Shown here piece after piece: positions 971 through 21,588 of a stretch of 64,000 nucleotides of DNA; within the stretch, counting starts at the first letter, position 1; each line of letters opens with the position of its first letter. The DNA comes from Dictyostelium discoideum (taxonomy: Eukaryota). The notes beneath the pieces were generated by a model, which was not told where the DNA came from, ran no database searches, and saw only the letters and a program-made list of their open reading frames with translations. A program made the translations under genes and the position numbers. Where the stretch lies: positions 4,640,001 through 4,704,000 of the forward strand of contig CM000151.3 in the NCBI GenBank assembly GCA_000004695.1, read 5' to 3'.

Positions 971-2337
971 TTATAAAACTGTCAAAGTTAGTTTTATAAT
1001 GGTAGGTGAGAATTCTACACCAGTTAAATCCACTCCAATTGCATTAAGTTCCAATGATTTTAAATTTTCAAAAATATGGAAAGAGTGGCTATCTAATTGG
1101 GTAAAATTATTTGAACCAATTATTTTTAGTTTTTCAATTGTTTTGGGCAATATTCCGATGTCAGAGAATGTAACAATTGATAAATTTGTAATTGTTGGCG
1201 GAAAGACTTTTTGAGTAAAAATGGTTCTGTTTCGACCTAGACCTAAAGTTTTAATTGATATTGGTAATGAATTTGGTTCAAGTTTATAATCGCCCATACG
1301 GAATTTCAACGATGTAACATAGTGTGGAATCATACCTTTTTCAATGGTCCCATTATAATAAAAATCAAACTCCAATGAAGTTGTACCACCTGGTACCGAC
1401 GTTAAGTCAAATTTATATATGTCGTGTTCTTTAAAAAATAAAGAATAATGAAGAGTTGTTACTGATTTTGGTATTGATCCATATTGGATTACTCCTTTGT
1501 ACACTGGAATAAATATTAGTGTTGTAAGTGATGGTGGCATTTCATCTCTATGAATTGAATGTTGAAATGATTTTCCAAAAGTTAAAGATTTTAATGTTCT
1601 TGGTAACCATGGTTCACCTTTTGTGTCACTTAACGATTGATTAAATTCATTACTAAAATTAATGGATGTTAGACTATTACCAATAATGTTACGGGTTAAT
1701 TGTTGATCAAAATAGGTAAATTTAATGGATTTACAAGTATCTGGTATCCAATGATCTACTAGTATAATATCTGAACAATTCATCTCTATCTTTTCTGCAG
1801 TTGATGGCATTGGACAACAATTTGAGATATTTTGTTGGTGGTTGTTATTCTCATCAGAATTCGATATGTTGGAATTATTAAAATAATTTCTATATTTATA
1901 TGTTGAAATATTATGTCCCCCTATATCAATGCTATAAATGATTCTGATTATTATATATTCTAAGATGAAATAAAATTTGATCCCTGATAAATATATTTCC
2001 CCAAACTTTTTTTAAATAATATAATTATTATCAAGTGTTTGATATATTTGTTGATTCGTTCTTACTTTATTAATATCAATTAATTTTAAAATCACAACCT
2101 GATTTAAATTATTGCATTTATTATTACTATTATTGGTGGTATGATTTAAATTATTTTTAATGGTGATATGATGATTTAAATTATTTTTAATGATTATAAG
2201 TATTGAACAATCGAATGCAATTCTTTTATTTCTTTTTGTTAATTGTGTCATTACTATTTTCTGTAATTGAAGGTTTTGATTATTGTTTTTATAATTAATA
2301 CCATTACATTAATCTTGAAGTTGGTTGAATGTAATAT
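971..2337 (-). pseudogene. FNIP-repeat family gene, copy 1 (5'-truncated, nonsense-interrupted)
   Basis: ORF 971..1810 (DHWIPDTCKSI...FNQSLSD...PWLPRTLKSLTFGKSFQHSIHRDE...) is a paralog of the ORFs at 3986..5173 and 5992..7392. The upstream segment 2012..2251 matches the conserved N-terminal region (KRNKRIAFDCSILIIIKNNLNHH). Homology to the other copies stops abruptly at ~2337 where the insertion begins, so no start codon is present. An in-frame TAA at 971-973 interrupts otherwise continuous FNIP sequence. Confidence 0.5.
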
Positions 2338-3195
2338 TTAAATTATTAACATCCAAGCCATGATCGCTTAGAAGGGCTTGTATTAACCCGTTGGCACGAA
2401 TAGCCCGGACAGCAGGACAGCCCTTAAAAAAAATTTTAAAAAAAAAAGGGCTGGTTTCAAGATTTTTTTTTTTTTTTTAAAATAAAAAAGGACCACACAG
2501 GCTTATAAAAAGAATTAATTTGTCATAAAAATTAAATGTAATAAACGTATTAAAAAAATTTTAAAATTTTAAAATGTAATGAATGTATTAAAAAAATTTT
2601 ATAATTTAAAATGTAATAAACGTATTAAATTATTAAAAAGAAATGTATTATTTTAAATAAAAAAATAATAGATATTTAAGTGTTATGAAGGAAGTTTTTT
2701 TTTATTTAAGTTTAATAAATTTAAATTAAAGCATGGAGATTTGTCACATTAATTTTTTATTTTTCGAGAACCTGCCTCTCTCTTTTTGACTCAGACATTT
2801 TTTTTTTTTTTATTTTTTTTTTTTTTTTTGGCTTGAATATTTTGTCGGCAAGCTGCCGAAAGAATTAATGTGATCATTTTTACCGGCCGGTAGTTTTAAT
2901 ATGGGAACCATTAGTTAATATGTATTGTCACTACAGTCTTTTGCGGTGTTTTGTTTAAAGTTGATTCTTTTCAAATATTGGGACTTCCCATATAAAACTA
3001 CCGGCCGGTAAAAATGTCACATTAATTCTTTCGGCAGCTTGCCGACAAAATATTCAAGCCAAAAAAAAAAAAAAAAAATAAAAAAAAAAAATATCTGAGT
3101 CAAAAAATCACATAAAAAAAAAAAATGAGCGAAATTTTTTGACAATCTGGTTTATTAATTCAAATTATTATTTTAATAATAATAATAATAATTTT

Positions 3196-3249
<54 letters not shown>

Positions 3250-3530
3250 CTGAGTCAGTTTTTAAAAAACAAAAAAAAAAAAATTAATGTGACAAATTAT
3301 TAAATAGTTATTTATTGAAATATTTATTTTCGTATGTGCGACTGACTGTGTCTTTTATTTTTGATATTTTCTTTGTATGATTTTGGTTTATTATTTGAAA
3401 TAAATAAATTCATTGGAAGTGCCACCATTTAAATTTTTTTTTTTTTTTTGGGAAAAAACAACATGTGTATTTGGATCCATTTGAAAAGATTGTAAAAAGG
3501 ACTACACAGGCTTATAAAAAGGTTTTTTTT
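2338..3530. mobile_element. Unclassified insertion between FNIP copies, with nested inverted repeats and flanking direct repeats (MITE-like or hairpin element)
   Basis: A GC-rich island lies at 2340-2425 (ccaagccatgatcgcttagaagggcttg...agcccggacagcaggacagccc). Direct repeats aaaaaggacCacacaggcttataaaaag sit at ~2485-2512 and ~3495-3522. Inverted 15-mers atttgtcacattaat / attaatgtgacaaat sit at 2739-2753 and 3283-3297. Inverted tgactcagacat / atctgagtca copies sit at 2786, 3094 and 3246. Tandem 29-bp repeats (aaatgtaataaacgtattaaaaaaatttt, x3) lie at 2535-2630. There is no ORF. The insertion interrupts homology between FNIP copy 1 and the other copies. Confidence 0.4.
2830..3060. repeat. Near-perfect palindrome (two 67-bp inverted arms, 96-bp spacer) with a GC-rich taccggccggta core
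   Basis: The arm at 2830-2897 (ggcttgaatattttgtcggcaagctgccgaaagaattaatgtgatcatttttaccggccggtagtttt) is the reverse complement of the arm at 2994-3060 (aaaactaccggccggtaaaaatgtcacattaattctttcggcagcttgccgacaaaatattcaagcc). The only difference is a single indel. Confidence 0.85.
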
Positions 3531-3739
3531 AAAAAAAATTAAAAAAAAAAAATAAAAACAATAAAAAAAACGATAAAAACATTACAATTTTTTAATTTTT
3601 TGTTAATTAATGTTCTTTTAAATAAAAAAAAATATATAAAAATAAAAAATAAAAAAAATAAAATAAAACAATTACATCAAAACAGTTGTTTTAAAAATTA
3701 ATATTTTTATTTTATATTTTTTTTTTTTTAAAATTGTTC

Positions 3740-5821
3740 ACTTTGTAATAGTTTTACATGTTTGATAAAGAAATGTGTGGGAATGGAATTTATAAAATCT
3801 AAACTATCACCACAGATATAAATAAATTCAAATGAAGGTGGCCATATTAAATCTGGTAATTCTTTACAACCATAACCTGTAAAATAAAATTATTTTAAAT
3901 TTGGTGGCAATGCATCTCTATCCATACTTGAATTGAAAAAATCTGAAACGCCTAATAAAGTGAGTGATAATGGAAATAAATCTTTTTAAATTGGTTGTTT
4001 GTACTGTGGTAGCTTTAATACCTCTATTGATGATGGTAAATCTCCAACATTTAATGGTTGATTAAAATTAAATAATTTTAATTTTTTAAAATTATTTTGT
4101 AAGAGACAATCATTAAATTCCAAATAATCTGAAACTGCTAAAGTTAATCTTGAAATAATATTTGGGAATTTTACATTGGTTAAATCCACCTGTTTTGCAT
4201 CAAAGTTCAATGATGTTAAATTTTTAAGAAAATAAAAAGAGTGGTTATCTAATTGGGAAGGAGGACTAAAATCCATTATTTTTAGTTTTTGAATTGTTTT
4301 CGGTAATATTTTGATATCAGAGAATGTATATACTGATAAATTTGTAATTGCTTGTGGGAAGACATCTCGAGGAAAGTTTTGGTTGCTACCAAGATGTAGA
4401 GTTTTAATTGAGATAGGTAATGAATTTGATTTAATTATACTATTGCAGAAACTGAATTTCAACGATGTAACATTGTGTGAAATCATACCTTTTTCAATGG
4501 TCTGGTCAAAAAAAGAATCAAACTCTAATGATGTTGTACCACCTGGTATCGATGTTGAGTCTAATTTAGCACCACCCTTAGAATCAAAATAATAATGAAG
4601 AGTTGTTACCGATTTTGGTATTGATCCATATTCGATTACTCCTTTATATTTTGGATCCAATATTAATGATGTAAGTGATGGTGGTATTTCGTCTCTATGA
4701 ATTGAATGTTGAAAAGATTTTCCAAAAGTTAAAGATTTTAATGTTCTTGGTAACCATGGTATACCATTTTTGTCACTTAATGATTGATTAAAATCCTTGC
4801 CAAAATCAATGGATGTTAGACTATTACCAATGATATTACGAGTTAATTGTTGATTAAAATGCGAAAATATAATGGATTTACATGTATCTGGTATCCAGTG
4901 GTCTACTAGTATAATATCTGAACATCTCATCTCTATCTTTTCCACAATTTGTGGTATTGGATAACAATTTGAGTTATGTTGGTCGCATAAGCCATTAAAA
5001 CTCAATAACTTGACATTATTAAAATAATTTCTGTATTTATATGTTGAAATATTATTTCTCTTTATTTCAAATGCTATGATTATGATTATTATATATTCTA
5101 AGATGAAATAAAATTTGATCCCTGATAAATATATTTCCCCAAACTTTTTTAAATAATTTATAATTATTATCAATTGTTTGATCTATTTGTTGATTTGTTC
5201 TTATTTTATTATTTAAATCAGGTTGTGGTTTTAAAATCAATTGATTTAAATTATTACTATTATCATTATTTTTAATGGTGATATGATGATTTAAATTATT
5301 TTTAATGATTATAAGTATTGAACAATCGAATGCAATTCTTTTATTTCTATTGTTAATTGTGTCATTACTATTATTGTTATTATCTGTAATTGAATGATTA
5401 TATATAACTTCATCATTAGAATTATTGGTTGTAAATGTGTTTTTTAAATTTTGAATATGATTATTTAGTGTTTGAAATTGCTGATCATTTAATCCTTTTA
5501 AATCATTTAAATGCTTTTTTTCCTCTTCTTCTTGTCTATATAAATATGTTTTTATAAATTAGTATAATAATAAAAATAATAATAAAAATAATATATAAAA
5601 CAATCAAAGTGTGTTAATGCATACAATATTTTTTTTCTTTTTTTTATTTGAAGGTTTTGATTATTGTTTTTGTAATTATTGATACTATTACAATAATCTT
5701 GAAGTTGGTTGAATGTAATGTTTAAATTATTAATTGATAATATTAATAAACAATTTAAAAACTCTTCATTGTTTTTATTATTATAATTATTAATTAAATA
5801 AGAGTAAATTATGTTATCCAT
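3740..5821 (-). pseudogene. FNIP-repeat family gene, copy 2 (frameshifted, with premature stops)
   Basis: Exon 1 runs 5821..5625 (MDNIIYSYLINNYNNKNNEEFLNCLLILSINNLNITFNQ..., donor GTATGC). Exon 2 carries the conserved LFKKVWGNIFIRDQILFHLRIYNN block in one frame, then shifts frame into ORF 3986..5173 (indels relative to copy 3 around NHNHSI*). FNIP homology continues past the TAA at 3986 to ~3740 with two more in-frame stops (KQPI*KDLFPLSLTLLGVSDFFNSSMDRDALPPNLK*FYFTGYGCKELPDLIWPPSFEF). Confidence 0.5.
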
Positions 5822-5991
5822 TTGATATTAAAAAAAAAAAAAAAAAAAAATCTCCAAAAAAAAAAAAAAAAAAAAAAAAAAATATCTCCAAAAAAAAAAA
5901 AAAAAGCTTTTTTTTTTGGGGCAGTGTTTTTTTTTTTTATTTTTAAATTTTTATTTTTAAACTTTAATAACAAGAAAAACATTTTATAATA

Positions 5992-8325: not shown

Positions 8326-11179
8326 TTATTTTTTAATATTTGTTACAGAGTTATTGCTATTAGTACTACTACTATTAGTTGATAGTGATGGTGAATTACT
8401 ACCACTGCCACTACTATTATCATCTTCAAACATTTTCACTTTATTTTTAACTAAATTGCTATTATTTAATTCTTCAGGAGTGATTACATGTCTCTTTAAA
8501 TCACTACTACTTGAATTACTATTACTATTAAAAGCAAAACCATCACTAGAACTTGATAATGGTGATGATGATGAACTTGTTGTAAATCGTTTCATTATTG
8601 ATGGTGATGCCCTTCCTGTCATTGTTGGTGAAATATCAACTCCACTTCCACCTCCATTACTGGAACTACTATTACTATTTGTTGTTGTTGTTGTAGAAGA
8701 ATTATTTACAGCAGACATTATTGCACTGTTTGGTCTAAATGAAGAATTTGAACTTGAAATTGAACCAGAACTTCTAAATGATGATTGTCTTGATAAAACT
8801 GGTGATGTTGTGGTTGTTGTTGTGGTTGTTAAGGATGAATTGACTGAATTTGTTAATGGTGAATTTGAAGATGGAGGGGATGATGATAATTTCTTTTCAT
8901 TTAAATTTGTAGCTGATAGTTTTGATTGCATTTGTTTTGGTTGAGATGTTGTATGTTGATTTTGTTTAATCTCTTCCAAAGCTAATAATATTGGTGATAA
9001 TTGTTGTTGAAGATTTATATTGATTTTATTAATAATTGAAGATTCCAATTGTTTAATTTCATTTTTAATATCATTAACAATCTTTTGATTAGAGCTATCA
9101 ATATAAGTGAATAATTTAGTTTCCAATTGTTTAAATTCATTCGTCATACTAATTGAAAATGGTGGTGTAATTGGTAATGGTTTATTTGGTGCAACATGTA
9201 AAAGGTTATTTCCACTTCCACTTTTTCCAATTGTTGATAAATTATTTTTTTTATTTTTCTTTTTATTTGATTTCTTTGTTGACTTATTTTTCTTCTTTCT
9301 AACAACCATTGTACCTGTTGCTGAAATTTCTTCATCTTCATTAATTTCATCATCATCTTCTTCTTCTTCTTCTTCTTCCTCATCATCTTCTTCTTCATCT
9401 TCTTCTTCATCATCTTGATCAGATGTAACACCACCATTACCATTACCACTACCTTTCTTTTTACCATGGAAAATAGTTGTACTAAATGGATCAACATCTT
9501 CATCATCCTCATTTTCATCATCATCATCCTCATCATCTTGTTCATCATCTTGTTCATCCTGATTATTATTTAAATGTTTTGAATCTTCCTCTTCTTCTTG
9601 GAAATCTCTACAAGTTGTATAATTTCCTTTGAAACTTAACATACCTTTGGAAGAGGTTGCTAATTTTAAAGAATTATTACAATTGTCCAATTCATCAGAA
9701 GGTGATGATGGTATTGGTGAAATGATTGAAGTTGATAAACCATCTGAACCAATATCTCCACCATTTACAGTTGCATTTGGTGATTGTGGTGATGATGATG
9801 ATGAAGATTGTGAAGTTTGATGTTTTTGTTGTTTTTTTAAATCATCAATTTTCTTTTTCTTAATTTTAAATAATTGATTAACCAAATCTGATAAAACATC
9901 AGGACCTCTATCTTTTTTAAGGAATGGATGACAAAGTAAATCGATTGGTGACGCTCTTTTCTCTGGATCTTTAACTAAACATCTTGCCAAGAAATCATTT
10001 AATAGAGGTGACCATTTTTTAGGTTCAGCAAATGTTGGAGGTGGCCAATTTGGTACCATTTTCATTGCTCTCATTGGTGGCAAATCAATATGTGGTGGTA
10101 AACCATCTGCCATTTCAATGATGGTGATACCTAATGACCAAATATCAGCTTTATAATCGTAATTCTTTTTTAAGATAACCTCAGGTGCCATCCATAATGG
10201 TGTACCAATCATCTCTTTAGATTGATCCAATGCACCATTTAATTTCTCTGAAACACCGAAATCTGCAATTTTCACATCACATCCTTCACTTAGTAATACA
10301 TTTGCTGCCTTTACATCACGATGAATAATATTTTGACTATGTAAATAAATTAAACCTTTGAGTGTGTTTTTCACAACAAATGAAATTTGTGCCTCGTTTA
10401 ATGTTTTCTCTGTTGATTCAATTATATCTCTAATACTACCTAAAGCACAGAAATCCAATAGAATCCAAATATGGGATTCAGTTTGAAGTGAACCAAAATA
10501 AGAGACGATATTTGGAGATTTACAATTTTTTAAAATATTAATTTCATTTTGAAGTGAAACACTCTCTGATTCTTTCATTTCAATAACTTTAATTGCTAAT
10601 GTAAATCCTAAATCTTTATGTGTACCTTTATAAACTGATCCATATGCACCATCACCTAATTTCTCATCCAATATAAAATCATTATGTCCTGTCCATTTCA
10701 AATCAAAATCAACATGCATCTTATGTATAACATTATATGGTACTGATATTTCTGTATTTATATCAAATGTTGATTTAGTTTTCTTATGTGATTTTTTATT
10801 AGTAGTTGTTGCTGCTGTTGTGTTTGGTGATGATATTGCTAATGATGATGATGATGGTGATGATGTTAATGATGATGTTGTTGATGGTGTTGTTGTTGAT
10901 GATGATAATGATGATTCTTTATGATGATGATGATGTTTAAATATTTCAGGTGTTTTTAAAAACTTTTTCTTTTTCTTTTCTTTTAATGGTTGATCATTTG
11001 ATGGTCTTGGTGAAATTAATCCATTTGGAGAAGTTTCACTCGAACCACCATTTGTAGTTTGAATTTCAACATTTTGTTGAGTTGGTGTACTTGGTAATTG
11101 TGAAATTGATGATTGTAATAATTTTGGTGATGAAATAAATTGTGCAATTTTACGTGTTAATTTTCTTGATTCATGAGTA

Positions 11180-11268
<89 letters not shown>

Positions 11269-11478
11269 ACTTGATGATAAATCTTGATGTTGTTGTTCAC
11301 TCGAATCAATATTTGAATTTAATGTTTGATTTGGTGACATTGAATAAGTTTCTGTAGTTGTATTTGAATCATCAGTACTAATATTACTTGAATGTCTTTG
11401 TAAATTTGGTTGACCACTATTACTTCCACTTGAACTGCTTGAAATAATTGATACTGAACTTTCAGTTCTTGCTAATTG

Positions 11479-11564
<86 letters not shown>

Positions 11565-11856
11565 CACTATTTTCATTATTCAATAATGAAAATTCACCAC
11601 CTTCAATACTGCTACTATTTCTAATTTGATGTGGTGGCGGGGGTGGTGTATAATTTGGTGGTAATTGACTTGGTGAATTAGTGGTTGTATCTTTCACTTC
11701 ATTACTACCACTATTACTTAAATTATTATTACTATTATTACTGGAAAATGAATTTAATAAATTTTGAGTTGATGGTGATTTCATGACTTTTTGGAAAAAT
11801 GATGAGGATTCTTTTTGATTTCCATTGTTGTTATTACTCAATTTTAGATTTGACAT
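8326..11856 (-). CDS. STE20-family (GCK/MST-like) serine/threonine protein kinase with long Asn/Ser-rich flanks
   Basis: Single ORF. Kinase domain: LGDGAYGSVYKGTHKDLGFTLAIKVIEM...HSQNIIHRDVKAANVLL...VKIADFGVS...GTPLWMAPEVI...DIWSLGITIIEMADGLPP. The likely start is MSNLKLSNNNNGNQ at 11856; the track's earlier M lies in a translated poly-A run. Confidence 0.8.
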
Positions 11857-18754: not shown

Positions 18755-19139
18755 GATTTTCTATTTTTTTTTTTTTAATTTCCTCTTTTTTTTTTATGTA
18801 TAATTCTTTTTTTAAATATTATTTGTATTGTTCAAAATTTTTCAAAAAAAAAAAATAAAAAAATTATATAGAAAGAAACAAAAAATAGTAATTAAATAAC
18901 AAATATTACAAAAACCTTAGATAATGGTCTAAGATCAGGTAATTATTAATTAATGAAACACCATTTTGGTTAATAAAAAAAATAAAAAAAGAAATTAAAA
19001 ACTATTTTTTTTTTTAACTTCTTTTTTTTTTTTTTTTTTTTTAATTTCCTTTTTTTATCCAATTGTTATTAATAATTTTAATATTTTAATTATAATTTAG
19101 GATTTCAACTATTCTACACATATGTTAAATCTATTCAAT

Positions 19140-20071
19140 AAATTAAATAGTAAATCACCACAAGATGAATCAACAAAACTTCAAAAACAACTATATGAAC
19201 AAATTATAGTGGATTCAAAGTGCAAATCATTATTTGAAGGTATTTGTTCAGATGTGGTTAATTTGTAATAATAAAGATTTTGAATATTTAAATCCTTAAT
19301 TAATTTTTATTTTTTTATTTTTTTAATTATTTTTTTCTTAGAAAGTTTAAATTGGAAAAAACAGATCCACGATTCATTATCACATTCAAAATAATTATTT
19401 GAATCTATTGTTGATAAATTGGGAATAAACCGTTATTGGAGACTAAAAAAACCTAGACCTTGGAAAGAAGAAAGATCAATGCACTCTGTTAACCAGTTGA
19501 TATTGGCCCACTAATAATAAATCGAGTTCTTCAAAGTGATCCTGACAAATCCAGAAATCCCTTCTTCAAACAGAAACAATAATTTTGTAAATAATAGTGA
19601 TAATAATAATAATAGTCAAAAGAAATTACAATCATATTTTTTATAAAGATAAAAATAGGGATAAAGATAAAGATAAAGATGAAAATGAAAATGTAAAAAA
19701 TCAATTTTCAAAATAATGGTAAATTTTCTTTCTATTATTAATTTTTTATTTTTTTTTTTTTTAAATCAAGGTATATAAAAAAAAAAATTTGTGTATTAAT
19801 AATCTAACTATTTAACAGAAAGAAATGACCAAAAAAAAAGAAAGTGGTTAATGCATATGGTGAAAGTATTCTTGGTGACAATGGTGATAATATTGATAAT
19901 AGTGATAATAGTGATAATAGTGATAATGGTGATAATGGCGATGATCTAAATGGTGGAAACATATTTGAAATCAATCAATCATTATTTTCAATGGTATTCG
20001 ATCAACTTCATGATAATAAATTTAGAACAGATTATGATAATCAATTATTAATTGGTATTGAATTTAATTAA
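19140..20071 (+). other. Possible small multi-exon gene (uncertain); the best ORF is 19844..20071, Asp/Asn/Gly-rich
   Basis: ATG at ~19142 (MLNLFNKLNSKSPQDESTKLQKQLYEQIIVDSKCKSLFEG, then gtatttg). The downstream segments contain stops. ORF 19844..20071 reads MVNAYGESILGDNGDNIDNSDNSDN...FDQLHDNKFRTDYDNQLLIGIEFN. No recognisable family. Confidence 0.2.
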
Positions 20072-20134
20072 ATCAATTATTAATGAATTAAAGAAAGTTG
20101 ATATTTTAATAGATCAGGGAAAGAATATTTAGGT

Positions 20135-20350
20135 TTCCACTCTGCCTGTGTATTTATAGATTTTCGGACTTGAAAGAATTCTTTATAAATTTGGCGCTCA
20201 CTATCTATATAGTATGAATGCTTGTAATATTAATTTTAATTGATATTGATTCTTATTAATATTACAAACATTCAAACTATACAGATAATGAGCTCCAACT
20301 TTATAAAGAATTCTTTCAAATTAGAAAATCTATAAACACAGGCAGAGTGG
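20135..20350. repeat. Large imperfect palindrome/hairpin (~75-bp arms, ~60-bp loop)
   Basis: ccactctgcctgtgtatttatagattttc...gaaagaattctttataaa pairs with tttataaagaattctttc...gaaaatctataaacacaggcagagtgg. Confidence 0.8.
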
Positions 20351-20469
20351 AACCAAAGATTTTTAAAAGTTCAATTATTTATCAATTCAAAGCTATCAAT
20401 TTTAAATTCATCAAAAAAACAATCAAAAATATAAAATTGGTAAAAAAGTTAAAGAAAATATTCAAAAGA

Positions 20470-20835
20470 AAAAAAGAAAAAAAGATTCATTTAAAAATCA
20501 ATTAAATTTTTTACTTCCAAATAATAATCTAAATAATAATCCAAATAACAATAAAAATAATAATAAAAACAATTTTAGTAATAGTAGTATTAGTAATAAT
20601 AGGTCAATTGTACAATCACAAACAATTTCTGATATTGGATATGTACCGCGCCAACAACAACCACAACAACAACCACAACAACAACAACCACCACAATCGT
20701 CAAGAAAAAGAAAATTAGAATCAGAATCATCAACCTCATCTCTCAAAAAACAAAGAAATCCATTCAAAAAAAACAAACTTAGAATGGAATCATCCTCGCC
20801 ACTCGAGAAACAAAAAGTCTCCAAATTTATTTAGA
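20470..20835 (+). other. Coding-like Ser/Gln/Lys-rich segment with a tandem ~50-bp peptide repeat; an inverted partial copy lies at ~20965..21055
   Basis: Plus-strand frame reads ...SNNRSIVQSQTISDIGYVPRQQQPQQQPQQQQPPQSSRKRKLESESSTSSLKKQRNPFKKNKLRMESSSPLEKQKVSKFI*. The reverse complement of 20968-21050 (ccattcaaaaaaagaaacttagaatcagaatcatcattttcaccactcgagaaag...) is ~85% identical to 20757-20815. Confidence 0.25.
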
Positions 20836-21588
20836 AGATGGTTCAAAAAAATACATTTCAAGTGGTAACTTTTTTTTTATTAAAATAATTTAAACTATCC
20901 AGGTAATACATATCCAGATTTTTACTACTTGAAAAGTATATTTTTGAACCTTCTTCAAAAATAATTTTGGAAACTTTTTTCTTTCTCGAGTGGTGAAAAT
21001 GATGATTCTGATTCTAAGTTTCTTTTTTTGAATGGTGAGGTTGTATACTATGAATTTAGCCAGGGATTCAAATTTAAAATTTTATTTATTGTTTATTGAA
21101 ATGAATTTATTAATTTTGGACCAACATTCAAGGTTGAGTATAGATATTCGTATACAGAAAAGAGTTTGAATGTCTATGTTGGTCAACATTATTGCCATTT
21201 CCAGGATTTTTAATATAATTGCATTTCAATAAACAAAAAATAAACCTTCAAATTATATTTCAAAATGAAGAATTCAGTATCAAGTATTAAAATAAATAAT
21301 AAAACTTTTATTTTTTTTATTTTTTTTTTTTATTTTTTTTTTTTTCTTTAAGTTAATTAAACAACCAATAGTATTTTCTTTAAATATTTTATATCTGATT
21401 TCTGTATCATTTTCTTTCTTAGCAATTGGAAAAAAAAAAAAAAAAAAAAACATTACAAATAATTAATTTTAGATATATTACTTTTAAAATTTTTTATTTT
21501 TTTTTATTTTTTTTATTTTATTTTTTATTTTATATTTTCAATTTAACTTTTTTTCTTTTTTTCTTTTTTTTTTTTTTTTTTATATAAT

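Follow-up and report, generated by a model that had tools for sequence, protein, structure and literature searches.

Loci at which an inverted duplication gave birth to a source of small RNAs, either a young MIRNA gene or a hairpin-RNA locus yielding endogenous small interfering RNAs (siRNAs), are known in plants and in Drosophila. In Dictyostelium, nearly all microRNAs (miRNAs) are species-specific (Edelbroek et al., 2024; PMC11014262), and a run rich in T, at most 26 nt long and ending in G, is found upstream of the point where the primary miRNA transcripts (pri-miRNAs; Liao et al., 2018; PMC6161686) are predicted to start. Moreover, a long hairpin in a fragment of Skipper on chromosome 2 was proposed as a source of small RNAs (2007; PMC2175303). 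The present analysis concerns another locus on chromosome 2 of Dictyostelium discoideum AX4. In a 64-kb stretch of this chromosome, hereafter the window, a 324-bp non-coding inverted duplication (positions 2783-3106) lies between two tandem FNIP-repeat genes, DDB_G0274411 (FNIP copy 1, identified by a 279-amino acid open reading frame (ORF) with 100% identity) and DDB_G0274635 (FNIP copy 2). It is specific to D. discoideum and would fold into a very stable hairpin. Our search for literature on DDB_G0274411 or DDB_G0274635 found nothing.

The locus resembles the young hairpin loci of plants and Drosophila in being a long, near-perfect inverted duplication with a short unique spacer, lineage-specific, non-coding and confined to a single locus. 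As with those loci, its product would be a Dicer substrate if it is transcribed. It differs from them in that its arms match no gene in the window, and in that it is known from sequence alone. With the pri-miRNA genes of D. discoideum (PMC6161686; PMC11014262), it shares an intergenic hairpin, a T-run ending in G and species specificity, but its stem is much longer and nearly perfect, and the locus is not in the published lists that were checked. The Skipper hairpin (PMC2175303) resembles it in being a long inverted repeat located on the same chromosome. It consists, however, of retrotransposon sequence with a loop of ~900 nt, whereas the present locus has no detectable transposon content and a loop of 77 nt.

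The inner palindrome is made of two arms of ~125 nt (2783-2907 and 2985-3106) placed around a 77-nt non-palindromic spacer. Each arm follows the layout TTTTTGACTCAGA[C/T]A, a T-run of ~30 nt, then GGCTTGAATATTTTGTCGGCAAGCTGCCGAAAGAATTAATGTGA(T)CATTTTTACCGGCCGGTAGTTTTA(A)TATGGGAA. The left arm core, GGCTTGAATATTTTGTCGGCAAGCTGCCGAAAGAATTAATGTGATCATTTTTACCGGCCGGTAGTTTTAATATGGGAA (2830-2907, plus strand, 40% GC), contains a TCGGCA-AGC-TGCCGA mini-hairpin and the self-complementary TACCGGCCGGTA (2881-2892). It is mirrored by the right arm core (2985-3060, minus strand), which includes TACCGGCCGGTA at 2999-3010. Between the two 76-nt arm cores there are zero substitutions and two 1-nt indels. The unique spacer (2908-2984), delimited by alignment and by folding, corresponds to the hairpin loop. 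The right arm base (3061-3106, minus strand; inverted repeat I2) comprises an A-run, that is, a T-run on the minus strand, and TGACTCAGATA (3092-3102). The original prediction, made from the sequence without database searches, had described 67-bp arms meeting at a taccggccggta centre. The arms are in fact longer and kept apart by the spacer, and the supposed centre is the TACCGGCCGGTA motif, which occurs twice, once in each arm.

This palindrome is nested in an outer inverted repeat. On the left, the outer unit (2739-2829, plus strand) is composed of ATTTGTCACATTAATTTTTT, a 28-nt spacer, TGACTCAGACA (2787-2797) and a T-run (2798-2829), and it is 77% complementary to 3215-3297. On the right, the outer unit (3200-3297, minus strand) is composed of ATTTGTCACATTAATTTTTT (3278-3297), TGACTCAGATA (3247-3257) and, on the minus strand, a stretch of 47 T (3200-3246). 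It is parted from the inner arm by an AT-rich insert of 93 nt (3107-3199), and the right side carries TGACTCAGATA plus a T-run twice. The outer inverted 15-mers that had been noticed previously, ATTTGTCACATTAAT at 2739-2753 and 3283-3297, are present and extend to 20 nt. The inner inverted tgactcagaca motifs are found as well, as TGACTCAGA[C/T]A at 2787 (plus strand) and 3092 (minus strand), with a third copy at 3247 (minus strand). Overall, complementarity amounts to 77% in the outer inverted repeat (2739-2829 versus 3297-3200) and to at least 97% in the inner one.

Folding agrees with the hairpin that had been anticipated, with a stability far beyond chance. As RNA, the 351 nt at 2770-3120 reach a minimum free energy of -181 kcal/mol (z = -24); as DNA, the region 2735-3300 gives z = -22. 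A single arm folded alone does not exceed shuffled sequence in stability (z about 0). Thus, the significant structure resides only in the pairing between the arms. The idea that each arm is a structured non-coding RNA gene of its own was discarded on this fold and on the lack of a DUSE. The DUSE motif, [AT]CCCA[CT]AA, is located ~60 nt upstream of the start of Class I RNAs and small nuclear RNAs (PMC7919456). No exact DUSE occurs in 2200-3800, and the four matches elsewhere in the window are fewer than chance predicts.

A second D. discoideum strain (GCA_054883475.1, locus L001), with 99.5% identity over 21.9 kb and a divergence of 0.11%, shares the entire structure. It is therefore not an artefact of the AX4 laboratory strain or of its assembly. 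Over 1.56 kb (2201-3760), the two strains differ by homopolymer lengths and by two single-nucleotide polymorphisms (SNPs), 2906 A>G, at the arm edge, and 2913 G>A.

The closest available relative is the sister taxon 'Dictyostelium cf. discoideum' (GCA_054859205.1, loci L002 and L006), with ~90% identity in genes and ~77% in alignable orthologous intergenic DNA. The kinase gene of the window, FNIP copy 3 and FNIP copy 2 have clear orthologues in this taxon, and the gene called B in its FNIP array is the orthologue of copy 0 (left of the window), with the orthology extending over ~660 nt upstream. Between these anchors, D. discoideum has ~3.3 kb (copy 1 plus 2351-3678) and cf. discoideum ~0.55 kb, without detectable similarity. 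A comparison of the segment with the cf. discoideum spacer gave low-complexity matches only, barely above shuffled controls. The whole segment at 2351-3678 has no counterpart in the sister taxon, in which orthology restarts at ~3679, in the 3' flank of copy 2. Copy 1 itself has no orthologue there: its identity to the seven FNIP genes of the extended cf. discoideum array is 77-81% in every case, and its best protein match in that taxon is 54% identical.

The FNIP array has been remodelled in other respects. The 5' part of copy 2 (5250-5850) is 91% identical to cf. discoideum gene A and 82% identical to its positional orthologue, gene C, which suggests gene conversion or unequal exchange within the array, as judged from these identities. 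An 'insertion' at the locus is inseparable from the gain or loss of copy 1 itself.

Copy 1 (DDB_G0274411; 406 amino acids, one intron) occupies 971-2251 on the minus strand, and tblastn with the FNIP protein P0121 matches 2251-974. Copies 0, 2 and 3, like the cf. discoideum genes, are homologous to copy 1 only as far as 2350|2351 (...aattattaac|atccaagcc...), 88 nt before the position of the paralogues' ATG. An abrupt loss of homology in exon 1 had been reported correctly but placed at ~2337. The remnant of the ancestral exon 1 (2252-2350, minus strand), recognised from the translations of copies 1 and 2, reads NNLNITFNQLQD, a stop, then CNGINYKNNNQNLQ. It thus contains an in-frame TAA, and the first 29 codons and the ATG of the paralogues are missing. 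In the cf. discoideum genes, exon 1 is intact. The absence of the paralogues' ATG agrees with the view that the copy had been deprived of its start, but a usable start remains: the AX4 gene model begins at an internal ATG at 2251. As to the proposed disruption of a FNIP exon by an insertion, the missing 88 nt of exon 1 and the promoter were not found beyond the far end of the segment. This argues for truncation or replacement, and not for insertion into an intact exon.

As had been seen, what follows the break is unrelated to the FNIP paralogues and non-coding. The unrelated sequence covers ~1.3 kb, with no ORF above 42 amino acids, and its composition differs from that of normal intergenic DNA. 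The GC-rich head, assigned earlier to 2340-2425, lies at 2351-2424 (74 nt, 54% GC) and begins exactly at the homology break. Dictyostelium intergenic DNA is 86% AT (PMC11014262), and the neighbouring intergenic spacers have 8-15% GC, versus 54% in the head and 40% in the palindrome arms. The high GC content of arms and head argues for youth, constraint or foreign origin. Several identities were tried for the head and rejected. It is not a tRNA or tRNA-like gene (ARAGORN predicts 0 genes, and the likeness to A and B boxes seen by eye is weak). Neither head nor arms match an Rfam family: there are 0 matches at the gathering score, and E-values up to 10 yield only chance-level matches (E above 1) to KRAS_3UTR, STnc590 and a Plasmodium snoRNA, all due to A/T runs. 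A captured coding exon was also discarded. The head is open in the FNIP frame and faintly ankyrin-like, with no Pfam match, and an exhaustive phmmer search of its peptide against 1.84 billion proteins retrieved only two highly repetitive proteins, judged spurious. Exact 20-24-mers of the head are found in no prokaryotic genome or viral contig of the collections scanned. Finally, homology of the head to the palindrome arms was rejected, as T-runs alone align.

Rightwards, the head is followed by a small stem-loop, CAGCCCTT-(A8T4A8)-AAGGGCTG (2418-2453), and a run of 16 T (2463-2478). The segment also holds a 28-bp direct repeat, AAAAAGGAC[C/T]ACACAGGCTTATAAAAAG, with a left copy AAAAAGGACCACACAGGCTTATAAAAAG (2485-2512, plus strand), which contains the TATA-like TATAAAAA, and a right copy AAAAAGGACTACACAGGCTTATAAAAAG (3494-3521, plus strand) detected by repeat search. 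The copies are 27/28 identical and are the two occurrences in 64 kb, where zero are expected by chance. Their flanks align weakly (a T16 run upstream), so that the 28-mer is the conserved core. The repeat had been described as a 27-bp element at both ends. It is real, and one base pair longer, but it does not bracket the segment, as the left copy lies 135 nt inside. An AT-rich 38-bp tandem repeat (2.8 copies, repeat family D5) occupies 2526-2629.

Our preferred explanation, to which we give a probability of about 45% and which is thus tentative, is that the palindrome represents an inverted duplication formed locally, which is either young or was homogenised recently and which lies within an older inverted repeat, in a spacer made by rearrangement of the FNIP array. 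The older inverted repeat (2739-3297), the outer parts of which are now ~77% complementary, would hold the young or rehomogenised inner palindrome (2783-3106). Because a young palindrome is nested in an older repeat, we infer that it may have originated by fold-back or template-switch repair in a tandem FNIP array subject to unequal exchange and gene conversion. The arm base, made of TGACTCAGAYA, a T-run of ~30 nt and a G, has the generic promoter-proximal pattern of Dictyostelium, so that transcripts begun on either side would run into the repeat. This could yield a ~230-nt hairpin RNA with a 76-bp stem interrupted by only two 1-nt bulges, a potential substrate for DrnA and DrnB, which are Dicer-like. 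The locus might then be a young source of endogenous siRNAs or a proto-miRNA; it could equally be inert. In its most explicit form, which we regard as improbable, this would be a newborn, D. discoideum-specific hairpin-RNA gene. Its own promoter-like arm bases would drive convergent transcription, giving either a hairpin whose stem measures 76 bp or double-stranded RNA, which DrnA or DrnB would process to 21-nt RNAs.

Several observations weigh against a local duplication of this kind or against its transcription. A T-run followed by G is found at both arm bases (2798-2830, plus strand; 3060-3091, minus strand), but this pattern has 17 occurrences in the window and is thus generic, with low specificity for transcription. 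Among the published mature miRNAs of D. discoideum, 0 of the 28 checked map to the window, and substrings of the hairpin are missing from three miRNA supplements. No complementary target of the arms is found within the window. A single-armed ancestral state was not found either, the whole segment being missing from the outgroup. The description of the structure as single-copy relates to ~85 kb of D. discoideum DNA and ~38 kb of sister-taxon DNA. Two further points speak at the same time for a mobile element. TGTCACATTAAT occurs four times and TGACTCAGAYA three times, in both orientations, like the subterminal binding sites of DNA transposons. Moreover, arms with 40% GC and a head with 54% GC are foreign in composition to Dictyostelium intergenic DNA and would also fit DNA that was recently acquired or derives from a transposon.

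These two points lead to the strongest alternative, a serious one although less probable than the local duplication. According to it, the structure is a non-autonomous DNA transposon, either of the foldback or miniature inverted-repeat transposable element (MITE) type or a relic of thug, DDT or Tdd with an internal deletion, lying beside the 5' end of copy 1 or having helped to delete it. Its likeness to MITE and foldback elements, including thug, lies in the inverted arms, the lack of an ORF and the internal short repeats in both orientations. The arms are long and near-identical, with a short spacer and no coding capacity. Terminal inverted repeats could be seen in the inner arms, and the outer 20-nt repeat starts at 2739 and ends at 3297. 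The structure is missing at the orthologous position of the sister taxon, and the segment abuts a truncated gene. In addition, thug-S elements are multicopy and give rise to hairpin-derived miRNAs (PMC4894637; PMC6161686), which counts for this alternative.

On the other hand, the present locus differs from such elements: it lacks a target-site duplication and a precise empty site, and the sampled DNA contains no second copy. No target-site duplication is found at the break (2350/2351), at the inner palindrome (2783/3106) or at the outer inverted repeat (2739/3297). Among the flanking words at the candidate termini, only ATTAAA is common; it is displaced by 8 nt and means little in DNA so rich in AT. 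As to the 28-bp direct repeats, they lie inside the segment, exceed the length of a target-site duplication left by a cut-and-paste element and have no adjoining A-tail. Neither A-run nor T-run occurs at either end inside these repeats, as would be sought for a retroposed insert of the non-LTR (long terminal repeat) type. Further copies of the arms, the 28-mer, the GC head and the outer repeat were searched for, with ~16% errors allowed, in the 64-kb window, in locus L004 (a different FNIP locus, 21 kb, of another D. discoideum strain) and in L002 and L006 (~38 kb); there were none. In all, ~145 kb of sampled Dictyostelium DNA contain no second copy, a search that would probably miss a family of fewer than ~100 copies, so that a low-copy family is compatible with it. 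The outgroup has a large replacement that includes copy 1, and not a precise empty site, and the window consists of ordinary housekeeping genes. No transposon ORF was found in its 64 kb, and no tRNA gene.

The lack of target-site duplications and of other copies in the sampled DNA tips the evidence towards a local rearrangement. From the original view of the segment as a non-autonomous transposon or hairpin element, a strong hairpin-forming repeat is retained, and the insertion of a transposon into exon 1 is not.

Exact-word scans of prokaryotic genomes, of viral contigs and, in a first scan, of metagenomes gave no match. A second metagenome scan returned one match of 24-26 nt to the arm core, TTTTTACCGGCCGGTAGTTTTA (locus L007, 1121-1147; contig Ga0256846_1001426, 34% GC). 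Given the size of the collection, and with nothing else in common with the contig, we judge it to be due to chance.

The possibility that the palindrome is already an established, selected hairpin-RNA or miRNA gene, functional now and with a defined target, appears decidedly improbable. It is favored by the very stable hairpin, of the kind expected from a D. discoideum miRNA gene, by the promoter-like T-run and G at each arm base, by arms that are identical in two strains and by the persistence of GC-rich arms despite the strong AT bias of the genome. However, with 2 SNPs in 1.56 kb, the identity of the arms is uninformative on selection. The locus is not among the published D. discoideum miRNAs that were checked, is not conserved in the sister taxon and has no target within the window, and its near-perfect stem is siRNA-like rather than miRNA-like. 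One candidate in the literature, the perfect hairpin ddis_Cluster_1861 (PMC11014262), was compared with the locus and set aside; it is listed without coordinates, and its energy per nucleotide does not fit. A scan of the locus for promoters and terminators of the bacterial type was uninformative.

Finally, it is very improbable that the segment mainly supplies the truncated FNIP gene with a new promoter and 5' leader in place of the old ones, with the 28-bp TATA repeat as a duplicated promoter module and the palindrome as a bystander. In its favor, DDB_G0274411 is annotated from 2251, so that a promoter is needed somewhere in 2252-2600, T10-AAAA-T8-AA-G comes after the minus-strand 28-mer TTTTTATAAG where the GC head begins or ends, and the 28-mer core is conserved (27/28) between diverged flanks. 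Against it, the second 28-mer copy points at no gene, the spacing from TATA to start would be long (~75 nt) and the palindrome is left unaccounted for.

Complex long inverted repeats are uncommon but not unique in this DNA. Two others occur in the window, neither of which is related in sequence to the palindrome described here. The hairpin at 20132-20355 has arms of ~104 nt, 85% complementary, with fairly regularly spaced mismatches, and folds as RNA with -117.8 kcal/mol (z = -20.6). In the second strain, it is fully (100%) conserved and lies inside a 356-amino acid multi-exon gene model of L001 with no Pfam domain. This hairpin is more similar to a miRNA precursor than the palindrome at 2783-3106, and it matches 0 of the 28 published miRNAs checked. 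At ~400 nt from it, a second inverted repeat (20760-21035) has arms of ~125 nt that are 77% complementary. Both are located in a D. discoideum-specific part of the window (18760-21042), which measures 2.3 kb, versus 0.46 kb in cf. discoideum.

In cf. discoideum, unrelated inverted repeats are found at the places of both the focal palindrome and the hairpins at 20132-21035. One of them, TATAATCTGGCTCCTGAG ... CTCACGAGCCAGGTTATAAT, has a tandemly doubled right arm and lies at ~20360-20600 of the L002 reverse complement, the counterpart position of the D. discoideum segment with the 20132-20355 and 20760-21035 hairpins. The other is a near-perfect, spacerless palindrome of 78 nt, TTTTTGGTTATCTAAGGG...GTTACA|TGTAAC...CCCTTAGATAACCAAAAA, at ~19638-19716 of L002 (3712-3790 in the reverse complement), just upstream of the ATG of gene B. 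The orthologous site of D. discoideum has the right arm only. When the two sequences are set side by side, this points to a palindrome gained or lost in situ in these genomes.

As for the remainder of the window, it has 22% GC, poly-Asn coding tracts and FNIP-repeat genes in tandem on the minus strand. Its other genes encode a STE20-like kinase, Rrn7, NUFIP1, a SNF2 helicase, an Upf1-like helicase, an arrestin, ribosomal protein L13 and a BTB protein. The gene of the STE20-like kinase is located at 8326-11856 (minus strand), and an 86%-identical orthologue (P0001) is present in the database. In the spacer downstream of copy 1 (8% GC), a perfect 26-bp tandem repeat, TTTATAACTTTTTTATAAATTTCTAT, is found in 2.5 copies at 72-137.

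Whatever the origin of the palindrome, the locus documents the remodelling of a FNIP array, with truncation, gene conversion and gain or loss of a paralogue, and it corrects the idea of an intact exon interrupted by an insertion. Should the palindrome be the relic of a known transposon, the case would become one of routine repeat annotation. At present, the palindrome counts as a candidate hairpin-RNA locus and a curiosity of modest weight. If it is transcribed and diced, it would provide a dated example of the origin of a hairpin-RNA gene in social amoebae. If it is indeed a newborn hairpin-RNA gene, the birth of an siRNA or miRNA gene would have been captured in Amoebozoa, with the sister taxon as the 'before' state.

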